From Candidatus Woesearchaeota archaeon (GTDB lineage Archaea > Nanobdellota > Nanobdellia > Woesearchaeales > GW2011-AR4), in the NCBI GenBank assembly GCA_016184145.1, contig JACPDF010000030.1:76-64075 (forward strand): DNA of 64,000 bases, given 5' to 3'. Of the stretch, positions 18,239 to 47,764 are shown piece by piece. Under the pieces are notes generated by a model that saw nothing but the letters and a program-made list of their open reading frames with translations, searched no databases and had not been told where the DNA came from. Both the position numbers and the translations under genes were made by a program. Positions within the stretch are counted from its first letter, which is position 1; every line of letters starts with the position of its first letter.

Positions 18239-18406
18239 TAGGCATCACCCTTTTTAGTTTAATTCTATACCTCTAAGAAGCAGTGTTTAAATACCTTTTT
18301 ATATTTTTAGAAACAGAATCGCTCTAACATTTCAATTTCGATATTCAAACCCTCGGGCAGTGGAAAATTTCTTTGAAATTTTCTAGCTTTCGGGACTTTT
18401 AAAGAA

Positions 18407-18709
18407 CTATTCGAGCATTTCGATTTCGATATTGAGCCCCTCAGGAATAGGAACCCTCATGACCAGCCTTAAAGCCCTTTCATCAAGGCCAAGGTCAATA
18501 AGCCTTTTATGAACGCGCATCTCATATCTTTCCCATGTGGCAGTTCCTTCGCCATCCGGGCTTTTTCTTGTGGTAACTTTAAGCTTTTTGGTAGGCATAG
18601 GAATAGGACCGCGCATTTCTACTCCGGTCTTGTCTGCAATGTCCTTTATGTAGCTGCAGACTTCGTTTATCTTGTTTATGTCTATGCTTGCTAACTTTAT
18701 TCTTGCTTT
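18407..18709 (-). CDS. rps10: 30S ribosomal protein S10 (start codon unresolved)
   Basis: [42 protein letters not shown] is the S10 core. The same frame is open upstream and encodes ..[31 protein letters not shown], the S10 N-terminus. There is no ATG, GTG or TTG between the in-frame TAG (18719-18721) and Met 18616. Confidence 0.85.
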
Positions 18710-20672: not shown

Positions 20673-20719
20673 CGAAAATCTTTGATTTTCGGTGTGCAGA
20701 AAATCTTTTTGGATTTTCT
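20673..20719. repeat. double-hairpin repeat, copy A (intergenic)
   Basis: CGAAAATC-TTT-GATTTTCG (20673-20691), 6-nt spacer, AGAAAATC-TTTTTG-GATTTTCT (20698-20719). Embedded in a longer imperfect palindrome GGCAAAGGC...TGCCTTGCC (about 20654-20746). Confidence 0.75.
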
Positions 20720-21479: not shown

Positions 21480-21524
21480 TGAAAATCAAAGATTTTCAGG
21501 TGCCAAAAATACGGAGGATTTTTG
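21480..21524. repeat. double-hairpin repeat, copy B (intergenic)
   Basis: TGAAAATC-AAA-GATTTTCA (21480-21498), 5-nt spacer, CAAAAAT-ACGGAGG-ATTTTTG (21504-21524). Confidence 0.7.
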
Positions 21525-21749: not shown

Positions 21750-21811
21750 TTTGTTCTTATAGCAACTTTTTTATATATGTTATCCAATAATTTTTCTGGA
21801 TTAACTGAAAA

Positions 21812-22629: not shown

Positions 22630-23163
22630 ATGAAAAAAGGGATTGAGCTTTCATTAAATTTTCTTGTTACCATAATAATTGCATTTACAATTTTCATGCT
22701 TGGGGTAAGGTTCATTTATACTCTTGCCAGCGAGGCAACAGAGCTTGAAAGCATGACAACTGATGAGTTGGATACTCAGATAGGCCAGCTGCTTTGCGAC
22801 AGCACAGACAGGGTATGCATTGGCATAGACAAGGAAACCATCCAGAAAGGGAAATTTGATGTTTTCGGAATCAAGGTAATAAACATAAATCCAGGAAGCA
22901 ATTTTGAGATGCAGATAACGCCTACAGGACATATAAAAAACAATGGCCCTATTATTCCGGTTGAACAAGGCAAGCTTAAGCTAAAATACAGGCAGGCTTT
23001 TTTTATTAACAGGAATGAGGAAGAATCTCTCGGAGTTGGTGTGGAAGTCTCCAAGGATGCAGAGTCAGGCACTTACATCCTTGATGTCGAAGTAAAGCAG
23101 ATTATAGATGAGGGGGCAGTGCCTTATGGTGGGCTGCACAAGCTTTATGTTGATGTGCCCTAG
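22630..23163 (+). CDS. archaeal type IV pilin-like protein (class III signal peptide)
   Basis: N-terminus MKKG|IELSLNFLVTIIIAFTIFMLG has the same xLExS pattern as 20920-21474. Confidence 0.6.
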   Translation: MKKGIELSLNFLVTIIIAFTIFMLGVRFIYTLASEATELESMTTDELDTQIGQLLCDSTDRVCIGIDKETIQKGKFDVFGIKVININPGSNFEMQITPTGHIKNNGPIIPVEQGKLKLKYRQAFFINRNEEESLGVGVEVSKDAESGTYILDVEVKQIIDEGAVPYGGLHKLYVDVP

Positions 23164-23963
23164 GTGTTGCATATTTCCGCAAAGCTTTTTGGGTCTAGAG
23201 AAGCTCCTCCAACCAAGGCGCCATCGATATTTTTCATAGCCAGTAATTCTTTGGCATTTTTTTCATTAACACTTCCACCATAAATAATTCTTATATTTTC
23301 AGAAATATCCACATTGTATAATTTTTTTAATAATCCCCTTATAAACAGATGCACTTCCTCTGCCTGCTCTGGGGTAGCATTTTTTCCTGTTCCGATTGCC
23401 CAGACAGGCTCATATGCAATTACAATGTTCTTTATTTCCTCATTATTTATGCTTCTTAAGCAATTTTCCAATTGAAATTTTATCACTGCTTTTGTTTCGT
23501 TGCTTTCTCTTTGCTCCAAAGTCTCCCCAATGCACAAAATGGCTTTTAATTTATTTTTTAGTGCCGCCTTTATTTTCTTGTTTATTATCCCGTCTGTTTC
23601 ATCAAAATAAGCCCTTCTTTCGGAATGGCCAAGAATCACATATTCACAGCCCGCATCCCTCAACATCGGCGCGGATATTTCGCCAGTAAAGGCGCCTTTT
23701 TCCTCAAAGTGCATGTTTTGCGCCCCCAATTTTATTTTTGTGCCTTTTATTGATTTTTTCACTTCATTCAATGAAGCAAACGGAGGGCAGATCACTATCT
23801 CATTTTTTGAACTCACTGGAAAATCCTTGGGATTTTCTGTGTCCCGAAAATCTTTGATTTTCGTGGATTTTATTGAATTTTTAAAATTATCAATGAAAGA
23901 AACCGATTCTGGAATGCTCTTGTTCATCTTCCAGTTTGCTGCAATAAGCTTTTTTCTCGGCAT
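23160..23963 (-). CDS. tpiA: triosephosphate isomerase, bacterial-type, with a 17-aa in-frame repeat insertion
   Basis: AANWKMN, ..GHSERR.. and ..AYEPVWAIGTG.. motifs. 267 aa. The extra segment TKIKDFRDTENPKDFPV is encoded by hairpin repeat 23818-23863. Confidence 0.9.
   Translation of the reverse strand: MPRKKLIAANWKMNKSIPESVSFIDNFKNSIKSTKIKDFRDTENPKDFPVSSKNEIVICPPFASLNEVKKSIKGTKIKLGAQNMHFEEKGAFTGEISAPMLRDAGCEYVILGHSERRAYFDETDGIINKKIKAALKNKLKAILCIGETLEQRESNETKAVIKFQLENCLRSINNEEIKNIVIAYEPVWAIGTGKNATPEQAEEVHLFIRGLLKKLYNVDISENIRIIYGGSVNEKNAKELLAMKNIDGALVGGASLDPKSFAEICNT
23818..23863. repeat. double-hairpin repeat, copy C (inside tpiA, in frame)
   Basis: GGAAAATCC-TTG-GGATTTTC(T) (23818-23838), spacer GTGTCC, then CGAAAATC-TTT-GATTTTCG (23845-23863). 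Same two modules as copy A, in the opposite order. Confidence 0.75.
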
Positions 23964-30665: not shown

Positions 30666-30695
30666 GAATTTTCCGGCCGAAAATTCGCAATTTTC
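30666..30695. repeat. overlapping short hairpins related to the GAAAAT(T)C family
   Basis: GAATTTTC-CGGCC-GAAAATTC (30666-30686) and GAAAATT-CGC-AATTTTC (30679-30695), nested in GTCCGG...CCGGAC (30652-30707). Confidence 0.5.
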
Positions 30696-39102: not shown

Positions 39103-39148
39103 TAGAAATCTGAAGGATTTCTAGGATGCCAAAAATCTTTGATTTTTG
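39103..39148. repeat. double-hairpin repeat, copy D (intergenic)
   Basis: TAGAAATC-TGAAG-GATTTCTA (39103-39123), spacer GGATGC, CAAAAATC-TTT-GATTTTTG (39130-39148). More small palindromes follow up to about 39235 (AGGCAC..GTGCCT, GTGC-GAA-GCAC). Confidence 0.7.
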
Positions 39149-46363: not shown

Positions 46364-47764
46364 TTATTGGCTTAGTTTTTTAACAAACTCATCAAACAAA
46401 AACTCAGTATCTACAGGTCCAGGATTCGCTTCCGGATGGAATTGACAGGAAAAAAAAGGCTTAGTTTTATGTTTAATTCCTTCATTTGTATTATCATTTA
46501 TATTCGTGAATAATGGCTCCCATTCTTTCGGCAGTGTTTTAGTGTCAACCGCATACCCGTGATTCTGTGTTGTTATGAAGCATCTTTTGGTGCCTTCCAT
46601 TACGCAAGGCTGGTTCTGGCTCCTATGACCATACTTTAATTTGTAAGTGTCGGCCCCTGCTGCAAGGGCAAGAATTTGGTTTCCGAGGCATATCCCAAAA
46701 ACCGGAATATTTTTTTCAATGGCTTTTTTTATATTTGCTATAGCTGTTTTGCACATCTTGGGGTCGCCAGGTCCGTTGCTGAGCACAATACCGTCAAAAT
46801 CAAGCTTGAAGAAGTCATAATCATAAGGAACCCTAATTACAGCTAACTCCCTTTTAAGCAAGTTCCTCATAATATTGTTTTTTACGCCACAATCAACGAG
46901 AATTACTATTTTTTTATTTTTACTATTTTTTTTGATAATTTTTATTTTGTCAAAAACCGACCCCGCACTAAAGTGCGTGGCGTGTTTTTGAGCATGCTCG
47001 GAAATCGCTGGCTTACTCTGAGCTGAAGCACAAGAGATTGCACCTTTTGCGATTTCCGACATTTCAATTATTGAATTATTTTGATTTAATTTTTTATTTC
47101 TATTGAAATTATCTTTTTTATCGGAGTTATTTTCTATTGAATTCACAGAAATCAGAGATTTCTGGGACACAAGAGCGAAGCTCTGTGCCGAACTCCGTTC
47201 GTGCACCGAAAATCTTTGATTTTCGCGTGCTTTATTATTGGAATTATCATAAATTACCGGCTTTTTTATTGTGACCTCTTTTACCAAATCAACCTTATTG
47301 GGATCGTAGAGCTCGACATCCTTGCCGTTTATTATAATTTTGCCGAGCATTGAGCCCTTTTCCCTGAGCTTTTTAGTCAGTTCCCTTGTGTCAACGCCAT
47401 AGATTCCAGGTATGTTATGCTCCTTGAGCCATTCTCCAAGGCTTTTTTTTGCGCTCCAATGGGAATACTCAAAAGAATAATCAGAGATTACAAGCCCTTG
47501 TATGTGGATTGCATAGGATTCAAAATTTTTCGGCATGCTATATCTGTCAGTCTCATTCGAAGGGATTCCGTAGTTTCCTATTAAGGGATATGTAAGGCAG
47601 AGTATCTGGCCTTTATAGCTGGGGTCTGTAAGACTTTCAGGGTAGCCTACCATGCCTGTGGAAAAAACAACCTCTCCGGAAACAGAGCTTTCAGAAGCGA
47701 ATGAGAAGCCGTAAAAAACAGAGCCGTCCTCAAGAATAAGCTTTGCGTTCTTTTTTAGCAGCAT
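46364..47764 (-). CDS. carA: carbamoyl-phosphate synthase small subunit with a roughly 105-aa in-frame insertion
   Basis: N-domain ..GMVGYPESLTDPSYKGQIL.. and GATase ..PVFGICLGNQ.., ..QFHPEA... Between VKEVTIKKPVIYD and IVILVDCGVKNN lies a low-complexity insert encoded by the palindromic repeats (about 46927-47251). Confidence 0.9.
   Translation of the reverse strand: MLLKKNAKLILEDGSVFYGFSFASESSVSGEVVFSTGMVGYPESLTDPSYKGQILCLTYPLIGNYGIPSNETDRYSMPKNFESYAIHIQGLVISDYSFEYSHWSAKKSLGEWLKEHNIPGIYGVDTRELTKKLREKGSMLGKIIINGKDVELYDPNKVDLVKEVTIKKPVIYDNSNNKARENQRFSVHERSSAQSFALVSQKSLISVNSIENNSDKKDNFNRNKKLNQNNSIIEMSEIAKGAISCASAQSKPAISEHAQKHATHFSAGSVFDKIKIIKKNSKNKKIVILVDCGVKNNIMRNLLKRELAVIRVPYDYDFFKLDFDGIVLSNGPGDPKMCKTAIANIKKAIEKNIPVFGICLGNQILALAAGADTYKLKYGHRSQNQPCVMEGTKRCFITTQNHGYAVDTKTLPKEWEPLFTNINDNTNEGIKHKTKPFFSCQFHPEANPGPVDTEFLFDEFVKKLSQ
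46961..47225. repeat. cluster of hairpin repeats inside carA (includes double-hairpin copy E)
   Basis: CAAAAAC..CGCAC-TAAA-GTGCG..GTTTTTG (46961-47001). TCGGAAATCGC (46998-47008) pairs with GCGATTTCCGA (47049-47059). CAGAAATC-AGAG-ATTTCTG (47146-47164). GAGC-GAA-GCTC and CGAAC-TCC-GTTCG. CGAAAATC-TTT-GATTTTCG (47207-47225). Confidence 0.7.

Follow-up and report, generated by a model that had tools for sequence, protein, structure and literature searches.

Short mobile palindromes have been described in several settings. The mitochondrial double-hairpin elements (DHE) of Allomyces and other fungi lie both between and within genes, their mobility is inferred from filled and empty sites, and their mechanism is as little understood as that of the element described here. 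The repetitive extragenic palindromes (REP) of bacteria and the bacterial interspersed mosaic elements (BIME) are mobilized by REP-associated tyrosine transposases (RAYT). In Rickettsia, to which they are restricted, Rickettsia palindromic elements (RPE) of ~100 to 150 bp occupy intergenic sites and, in frame, housekeeping genes (Ogata et al. 2000, via PMC10969869). A study of Haloquadratum describes palindrome-associated transposable elements (PATE) derived from IS200/IS605, including mobile 52-bp "terminal-only" versions, as well as small mobile repeats (SMR) that cause no target duplication, enter palindromes close to the termini of IS605-type elements, and are mobilized in an enigmatic way (Dyall-Smith et al., PMC3119063). 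In this study, we describe a 54-nt element of two short hairpins that lies within tpiA, the gene for triose-phosphate isomerase (TIM), on a 64,000-nucleotide stretch of a Candidatus Woesearchaeota archaeon genome (GenBank assembly GCA_016184145.1, contig JACPDF010000030.1, positions 76 to 64,075; hereafter the window). We give a probability of roughly 80% to the reading that a mobile double-hairpin element inserted in frame in tpiA and is tolerated as a surface loop. The features of the locus are the following.

23160 to 23963, minus strand: tpiA, bacterial-type triose-phosphate isomerase, 267 aa, from the open reading frame (ORF) and homology; host of the insertion
23814 to 23867, plus strand: double-hairpin element, 54 nt, an exact gap versus contigs L001 to L003
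23819 to 23837, plus strand: hairpin 1 (hp1), GAAAATCC-ttg-GGATTTTC, perfect 8-bp stem and 3-nt loop, from the hairpin scan and single-stranded DNA (ssDNA) fold
23845 to 23863, plus strand: hairpin 2 (hp2), CGAAAATC-ttt-GATTTTCG, perfect 8-bp stem, from the hairpin scan and ssDNA fold

The tpiA product matches PF00121 and the TIMs of the PDB (E = 1e-74), keeps the invariant residues of the family, including N10, K12, H113, and E185, and has close homologs labeled Woesearchaeota or Nanoarchaeota. Its closest ortholog, P0002, has 249 aa and 89% identity over the aligned residues and is encoded on contigs L001 to L003, which are syntenic with the window at ~83% DNA identity across 2.4 kb. Alignment to these contigs leaves a single, clean, uniquely placed gap of 54 nt with zero target duplication: the gene-strand sequence is AATAAAA/TCCACGAAAATCAAAGATTTTCGGGACACAGAAAATCCCAAGGATTTTCCAGTG/AGTTC in the window, with slashes at the junctions, and AATAAAA/AGTTC in L001. 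The original prediction, made from the letters of the window, had placed a double hairpin here, and both hairpins are present; it had also proposed an in-frame insert of about 17 residues, of which the frame holds and the length does not, since the alignment to L001 to L003 gives 18 residues (54 nt). On the tpiA sense strand, these 18 codons encode S-TKIKDFRDTENPKDFPV. In the orientation from hp1 to hp2 (TTT loop), the element reads CACTG GAAAATCC ttg GGATTTTC TGTGTCC CGAAAATC ttt GATTTTCG TGGA, and the hp2 stem is prolonged by a 3- to 4-bp outer helix with a 1-nt 3' bulge. Fold prediction of positions 23808 to 23873 as ssDNA gave two adjacent hairpins and nothing else on either strand, with z-scores of -7.2 (plus strand) and -6.3 (minus strand) and an equally stable fold in 0 of 200 shuffles. 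The gap is constant in size versus 18 orthologs and versus the TIM structures of C. perfringens and T. maritima, in keeping with the earlier statement that other TIMs have a shorter loop where the insert lies. On the evidence of these alignments, the element entered tpiA after the lineage split from its closest sequenced relative.

We considered that the loop could instead be ancestral and lost in the relatives, or that the insert could be an assembly chimera, and a complete filled gene is indeed found on one full-length contig only. However, the 18-residue insert is absent from all 57 other aligned TIM orthologs, one of them at 89% protein identity, and the insert DNA is a dispersed repeat. 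Peptide and DNA are both missing from the orthologs, as the original prediction expected, and none of those aligned carries the peptide without the repeat. The left junction, AATAAAA/TCCACGAAAATCAAAGATTTTCGGGA, was reproduced identically in two other assemblies, Logan contigs L149 (SRR12113422) and L151 (SRR12113428), which argues against an artifact. Both also hold the identical upstream gene and tpiA start and terminate within the element at ...AATAAAATCCACGAAAATCAAAGATTTTCGGGA, which would be consistent with short-read assembly breaking in a repeated palindrome. An ancestral loop or a chimera is thus extremely unlikely.

An AlphaFold2 model of the tpiA product, built from 58 sequences, had a mean predicted local distance difference test (pLDDT) score of 90 and a predicted template modeling (pTM) score of 0.89, and it superposes on TIM structures in Foldseek (4y8f, TMt of 0.96 and root mean square deviation of 1.1 Å). 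The structural check suggested with the original prediction placed the insert in a low-confidence coil of an otherwise confident TIM: residues 34 to 54 were modeled as coil with a pLDDT of ~50, between helix 17-33 (α1) and strand 55-59 (β2). The topology of a TIM barrel, whose catalytic loops are on the opposite face, puts α1-β2 connections on its N-terminal face. A disordered hydrophilic loop on that face of the modeled enzyme would be expected to be tolerated given its position away from the active site. Because the insert measures 54 nt and is stop-free in the orientation and frame used, the reading frame continues, and the insert would be translated into an 18-residue hydrophilic disordered loop.

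The TIM itself is of the bacterial type (~250 aa, NWKMN motif), like the other Woesearchaeota and Nanoarchaeota matches, and its best PDB matches are from Clostridium and Thermotoga. The occurrence of this type across the Woesearchaeota and Nanoarchaeota matches suggests an old transfer of the TIM gene into this archaeal group.

The element is not confined to tpiA. With up to 3 mismatches allowed, hp2 has 8 matches over both strands of the window, at 5 loci (20673, 21480, 23845, 39130, and 47207), versus 0.07 expected, and a hairpin scan of the window found nine hairpins in five double-hairpin elements (20673 to 20719, 21480 to 21524, 23819 to 23863, 39103 to 39148, and 47146 to 47225). Both searches recovered the three spacer copies near 20.67, 21.48, and 39.10 kb that the original prediction had listed; its list lacked the copy at 47146 to 47225 in carA. 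The further copies and the second host gene are as follows.

20673 to 20719, plus strand: copy A, composed of hp2, gtgtgc, and AGAAAATC tttttg GATTTTCT; intergenic, 39 nt upstream of the start of the L10e/L16 gene
21477 to 21528, minus strand: copy B, 52-nt double hairpin between two codirectional genes
39103 to 39148, plus strand: copy C, composed of TAGAAATC tgaag GATTTCTA, aggatgc, and CAAAAATC ttt GATTTTTG; intergenic, downstream of ribB
46364 to 47764, minus strand: carA, carbamoyl-phosphate synthase small subunit, 466 aa versus ~358 to 421 aa in relatives; second host gene
47144 to 47230, plus strand: carA insert 1, 87 nt (29 codons), a string of four hairpins, encoding ARENQRFSVHERSSAQSFALVSQKSLISV
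46949 to 47062, plus strand: carA insert 2, 114 nt (38 codons), a hairpin element of a different type, encoding MSEIAKGAISCASAQSKPAISEHAQKHATHFSAGSVFD

The syntenic L001 lacks copy B: the two genes abut there, with GGGGCTAAAATGGCT as the empty site. The filled site is GGGGCTAAAA/CCATGAAAATC...TTTTTGAGCA/TGGCT, ambiguous in placement by 1 nt and without duplication. With this copy comes a GGAGG located 11 nt ahead of the ATG of the next gene. The carA product has 466 aa versus 346 to 442 aa in relatives, and its interdomain linker holds two in-frame inserts, both of which are absent from the carA genes of L125 and L126 by DNA comparison. Insert 1 sits 3' of AATAAA and consists of hp2, CGAAC tcc GTTCG, CACAAGAGC gaa GCTCTGTG, and CAGAAATC aga GATTTCTG. 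Insert 2 (fold z of -4.9) is 80 to 85% identical to an intergenic region of another genome (L045:2855-3035); compared with insert 2, that region has an additional double hairpin of 52 nt nested in it, again without duplication. Of the six hairpin elements of the window, three lie within genes, and all three are stop-free with lengths that are multiples of three; fold z-scores of the elements span -3.8 to -7.2. A phmmer search with the carA linker against 1.84 billion representatives matched only tiny ORF calls over intergenic copies. The database proteins P0242 to P0248 (56 to 78 aa, starting MSEIAKG...) are translated copies of the insert-2 element and are probably spurious gene calls over a noncoding repeat. 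Separately, the CarA of relatives (L125:1032-2297; P0123 and P0124) has a different insert of 19 to 20 residues, NDNQSEIGRINPPTSPQSHQ, within the glutaminase domain, whose DNA in L125 holds the hairpin ACCAATC gga GATTGGT, and other CarA orthologs bear more linker inserts, such as ARKLEISGTNYV.

Comparison of filled and empty sites bounded four insertions, in tpiA, at copy B, in carA, and in a haloarchaeal TnpB element, all without target duplication, and the dispersed repeat thus behaves as mobile, in line with the insertion that the original prediction had supposed. In the haloarchaeal case, on the Salinirubellus plasmid L129 (2475 to 2540), a 58-nt double hairpin occupies the loop of the right-end hairpin of the TnpB element (GCCTCGGGG/CTTGACCCCGAGGC), and the closest TnpB copies, L131 and L132, have the empty site. 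TAAA(A) stands 5' of the element in tpiA, copy B, and carA, in an AT-rich genome; the tpiA element lies directly 3' of TAAAA on the gene strand. On the other strand, hp2 is followed by TTT(T) in every one of the 11 tpiA-type copies; over the 34 copies taken together, the figure is 17, versus a background of 15%. The two hairpins of the tpiA insert stand 4 to 5 nt from its ends, and terminal inverted repeats are missing in most copies of the family.

The combination of a 5' TAAA(A), no duplication, and subterminal hairpins suggests a single-strand mechanism like that of IS200/IS605 (PATE) elements. We propose that the repeat is a very small nonautonomous mobile element, two short hairpins ~6 to 7 nt apart, and that its mobilizing enzyme would be supplied in trans and recognize the hairpins on ssDNA. 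A Y1 (HUH) transposase of the IS200/IS605 type is the likeliest, if tentative, candidate for this enzyme, in which case the element could be a minimal "terminal-only" PATE-like unit. Movement by a DDE transposase, as in a classical miniature inverted-repeat transposable element (MITE), would suit the small size and multiple copies of the element and the ends of the tpiA copy, which form the imperfect inverted repeats CAC(T)GGAAAATC ... GATTTTCGTG. However, we disfavor a DDE-type MITE as very unlikely because target-site duplications were found in 0 of the 4 defined insertions; in addition, most copies pair unrelated stems (>25 partner stems) and hence have no terminal inverted repeats, and no parent transposon was found among the hp2 neighbors or the ten window ORFs scanned.

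Some further observations concern the haloarchaeal copies. The L129 insertion alters the final codons of tnpB. Between 31 and 33 haloarchaeal plasmids have related double hairpins, and in the inspected L127 and L128 the copy lies ~1 kb from an orc1/cdc6 gene. We rejected the possibility that the double hairpin is itself an IS605 right end, given that annotated transposases are missing beside 32 of 33 similar copies and that the closest TnpB copies lack the double hairpin, which interrupts their right-end hairpin loop.

In-frame copies were also found in other genes. We checked 12 JGI metagenome contigs with the double hairpin for host frames using Pfam, and it lies in mid-domain of an LspA/Peptidase_A8 frame (L143), within an RNase P Pop5 frame (L144), in the frame of a T2SSF/FlaJ-like membrane protein (L139), in a K/E-rich protein frame without a Pfam match (L140), and in the C-terminal tail of a MazE-like protein whose match is weak and under the Pfam cutoff (L135). 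A copy in a PUA-domain ORF of L088 (weak Pfam match) encodes AKIKDFRDIKNPRDFLV, read in the frame used in tpiA. Two other TIMs have inserts of their own: in that of L004 (P0011), a mini double hairpin, CGGACaaaGTCCG-gc-ATCAACtccGTTGAT, occupies the α1-β2 loop, as in tpiA, and P0010 has an 18-residue insert in another loop, VHEKQGFSGRRKKIVFSS, which is known from the peptide alone and resembles the frame-3 translation of the element, HENQRFSGHRKSQGFSS. Every coding copy shares one orientation, with hp2 first on the sense strand and an AAA loop. In this orientation, all three frames are stop-free and hydrophilic, with a grand average of hydropathy (GRAVY) of -0.8 to -1.9, and the opposite orientation gives hydrophobic peptides (GRAVY of +0.55) or a TGA stop. 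A uniform orientation with stop-free hydrophilic frames fits a selective filter on translated inserts. Under such a filter, the survivors in essential genes would be copies of a length divisible by three, in the hydrophilic orientation and in permissive loops or linkers.

A counterexample was found at L138:250-1285, where a tandem hp2 pair (25-nt period) leaves the halves of an Iso_dh (isocitrate/isopropylmalate dehydrogenase) gene in different frames; one hp2 unit alone would preserve the frame. This is probably a pseudogene or the duplication of a single unit that was originally in frame.

The 54 nt could also be removed from the RNA, by splicing as a bulge-helix-bulge (BHB) intron or otherwise, to leave a mature TpiA without the loop. 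Archaea splice BHB introns from a few mRNAs, and the halves of the L138 Iso_dh gene lie in different frames on either side of the tandem hp2 pair. Against removal, the predicted fold is two plain hairpins with irregularities of 1 to 2 nt rather than a 3-4-3 bulge-helix-bulge, and the flanking exons are not complementary; the archaeal motif (helix, 3-nt bulge, 4-bp helix, 3-nt bulge, helix) was not found at the insert junctions. Moreover, the three bounded coding inserts of the window measure 54, 87, and 114 nt, all multiples of three, and the in-frame copies elsewhere are all in the stop-free, hydrophilic orientation, which would be expected from selection on a translated product and not on an intron. 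We therefore regard removal from the RNA as quite improbable and favor retention of the insert as a loop.

The family extends well beyond the window. A scan of the GTDB representative genomes (596 Gb) for the exact 19-mer CGAAAATCTTTGATTTTCG found it in more than 120 contigs of archaea and bacteria among the matches listed; a few matches per 596 Gb would be estimated by chance. The archaeal hosts are Woesearchaeota, Pacearchaeota, Nanoarchaeota, Aenigmatarchaeota, Altiarchaeales, Methanobacterium (including complete genomes), metagenome-assembled genomes labeled Methanosarcinales, and cultured haloarchaea of 67 to 71% GC, and the bacterial hosts are Oscillospiraceae/Faecousia, Omnitrophota, Nitrospirae, and others. 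The same 19-mer had 0 matches in a viral contig collection. Among 52 archaeal hp2 copies, 42 have another perfect hairpin within 10 nt; the mode of the spacer is 6 nt, and over 25 distinct partner stems occur. The outer helix around hp2 has a mean extension of 1.87 bp versus 0.91 bp in shuffled controls. The tpiA-type layout (54 to 55 nt) recurs in at least 10 other contigs, and two copies that were aligned, L034:1056-1122 and L088:7703-7768, are 82 to 87% identical to the tpiA element. The hp2 loop TTT is found in both orientations relative to the flanks, in Clostridia and in haloarchaea; the loop being the same in both, it seems unconstrained, and the stem is the conserved part.

This sharing of sequence contradicts a local origin of the hairpins by replication slippage or template switching (quasi-palindrome formation). 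The loop inversion and the local duplications around the carA insert do show template switching in these sequences. However, copies elsewhere, at unrelated loci and in unrelated genomes, match the whole 54-nt unit at 82 to 87% identity, and comparison with the relative shows the unit arriving in one step, as a clean gap of 54 nt. A local origin is, accordingly, very unlikely indeed, and arrival of a ready-made unit accounts better for the locus.

Two bacterial settings of the 19-mer deserve separate description. In Oscillospiraceae/Faecousia (e.g., L013, L019, and L048), CGAAAATCTTTGATTTTCG lies within a conserved repeat of ~100 nt, often at contig ends; in these gut Clostridia, the repeat occurs in both orientations with the loop always TTT ("flip-flop"), and no transposase is nearby. 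In Omnitrophota (L030, L042, L086, L094, and L118), a leader-like repeat, aattcgcac...gtgctcatt, stands directly upstream of rpoA, pheS, tuf, and other genes, and it forms a long hairpin whose outer stem differs in each copy and whose tip is constant, TTACGAAAATCTTTGATTTTCGTAA. Insertion into hairpin loops would explain both these constant tips on variable stems and the nested strings of archaea.

We also considered that the hairpins could serve the host, in RNA stability or processing, protein binding, or translational coupling, with the intragenic copies being by-products or adaptive. The exact hp2 sequence is kept in very different genomes, including the GC-rich haloarchaea; the Omnitrophota tip is constant upstream of rpoA, pheS, and tuf; copy B places its GGAGG 11 nt from the following start codon; and all four orientable transcription-unit copies (tpiA, carA, B, and C) point the same way with respect to the local gene. 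On the other hand, presence or absence varies among close relatives at all sites examined, the neighboring genes share no function, and the hp2 loop flips (TTT or AAA) relative to the flanks. No Rfam family matches the element: in the window and 8 loci, tRNAs alone reached the gathering score, and at permissive thresholds the element regions of the 8 loci and the carA linker scored far below it. A host-serving origin of the family is thus doubtful, and mobility remains our preferred reading, with which a host function of the intergenic copies (RNA stability, coupling, or protein binding) is compatible.

Several points weigh against a mobile element that is moved in trans and translated within tpiA. 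Translation of the insert is a prediction from sequence, and the independent assemblies cover the left junction only, the right junction resting on the window's own contig. The span of the exact 19-mer across archaea and bacteria fits poorly with a simple lineage-specific selfish element. No transposase was found in the ten window ORFs scanned with Pfam, which had housekeeping or no family matches (the rest of the window was not scanned), no transposase family was enriched in Pfam among 148 archaeal and 110 bacterial ORFs beside hp2, and no IS200/IS605 element with these end hairpins was found among the hp2 neighbors or the scanned window ORFs. The distances from hairpin foot to element end in IS608 are longer than the 4 to 5 nt seen here, and the haloarchaeal insertion lies after GGGG in a hairpin loop, not at TAAAA. 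All-against-all clustering of the ORFs near 120 hp2 copies gave no recurrent family, the neighbors being ordinary housekeeping genes. Given that no Y1 transposase, RAYT, or parent insertion sequence was found in these sets, we treat the enzymatic step as hypothetical.

The parallel with RPEs drawn by the original prediction stands for in-frame colonization and fails for family membership. Like RPEs, the element is a short palindromic mobile repeat found in intergenic sites and in frame in unrelated housekeeping genes at fold-compatible positions (PMC10969869); the genes entered at permissive sites are tpiA, carA (twice), and elsewhere those for LspA, Pop5, a T2SSF-like protein, and a PUA-domain ORF. 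Unlike RPEs, it measures 52 to 58 nt (composites reach 114 nt), consists of two discrete hairpins of 7 to 9 bp, and is archaeal and unrelated in sequence. Since the size (54 nt in tpiA), sequence (AT-rich 8-bp hairpins), and host (Woesearchaeota-like) all differ, the resemblance is functional only.

The element shares with the PATEs of the Haloquadratum account a size of ~52 bp, a hairpin near each end, no need for terminal inverted repeats, no duplication, an apparent short-oligonucleotide target, and an archaeal setting in which PATEs are abundant (PMC3119063). The tpiA copy has this layout, with subterminal hairpins at both ends and no terminal inverted repeats. In contrast to PATEs, no parent IS200/IS605 element or TnpA was found near hp2 copies, the hairpin-to-end distances are very short, and the L129 double hairpin interrupts the right-end hairpin of a TnpB element rather than being an end of its own. 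SMR-A, in the same account, is likewise small, without a transposase or duplication, and found in an IS605-type near-terminal palindrome, as in L129; it is ~110 bp long with prominent inverted terminal repeats, and in-frame gene insertion is not reported for it in the sections available (PMC3119063). REPs and BIMEs share short imperfect palindromes in paired or mosaic arrangement, a location near housekeeping genes, and the lack of duplication. Nevertheless, REPs are extragenic by definition, have a conserved 5' tetranucleotide, and are linked to RAYT, none of which was found here: several copies are intragenic, and no RAYT-like gene was present among the hp2 neighbors. DHEs share the two-hairpin architecture and size range and differ in being organellar and unrelated in sequence. 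In its behavior, the element is an archaeal counterpart of RPEs; its architecture resembles DHE, and its insertion signature is closest to the PATE/SMR type. The original prediction knew of no archaeal equivalent, and our full-text searches likewise found no description of archaeal in-frame hairpin elements and nothing on the element sequence itself; only a MITE review and the Haloquadratum paper surfaced. The Rep-Arvir origin hairpin and ωRNA were considered from the literature and are unrelated to the element.

Collectively, these findings raise the possibility, which we put forward cautiously, of an undescribed superfamily of hairpin mobile elements of ~25 to 60 nt in archaea (DPANN, methanogens, and haloarchaea) and some bacteria (Oscillospiraceae and Omnitrophota), moved by a hairpin-specific enzyme, with a near-invariant recognition hairpin, CGAAAATC-NNN-GATTTTCG, and with A-runs and existing hairpin loops as targets. 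If this is true, such elements would regularly supply the core enzymes of reduced DPANN genomes with new surface loops and linkers. In-frame colonization of essential genes by selfish palindromic DNA has hitherto been a textbook peculiarity of Rickettsia and would now extend to DPANN, with a smaller, two-hairpin element. The creation of loops and linkers in conserved proteins by tiny mobile elements would then be a general route, and it would explain variation in DPANN protein length such as the 346 to 466 aa of CarA and the three different inserts of TIM. For annotation, small "MSEIAKG..." ORFs should be recognized as copies of an element, and short-read assemblies can end inside elements. 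The 19-nt hairpin and its putative TAAAA target together provide a defined substrate for seeking the responsible enzyme. The conservation of one 19-nt hairpin across domains is now directly testable.

Finally, three other places in or beside the window drew our attention. Relative to L001, ~390 nt (L001:2354-2740) are missing from the window at a junction near 21786 to 21797, and their reverse strand holds a small Cys-rich ORF resembling a zinc finger. In the convergent-gene gap at 30666 to 30695, two overlapping hairpins, GAATTTTC cggcc GAAAATTC and GAAAATT cgc AATTTTC, may be relatives of the double-hairpin family or a terminator-like structure. At 18323 to 18453, a 9-bp hairpin (18363 to 18383, GAAAATTTC ttt GAAATTTTC) is flanked by two direct repeats of 43 nt, which share 77% identity and are separated by 88 nt; the surrounding region of 17.7 to 18.7 kb contains no ORF of 80 aa or longer and adjoins the aEF-1α gene.

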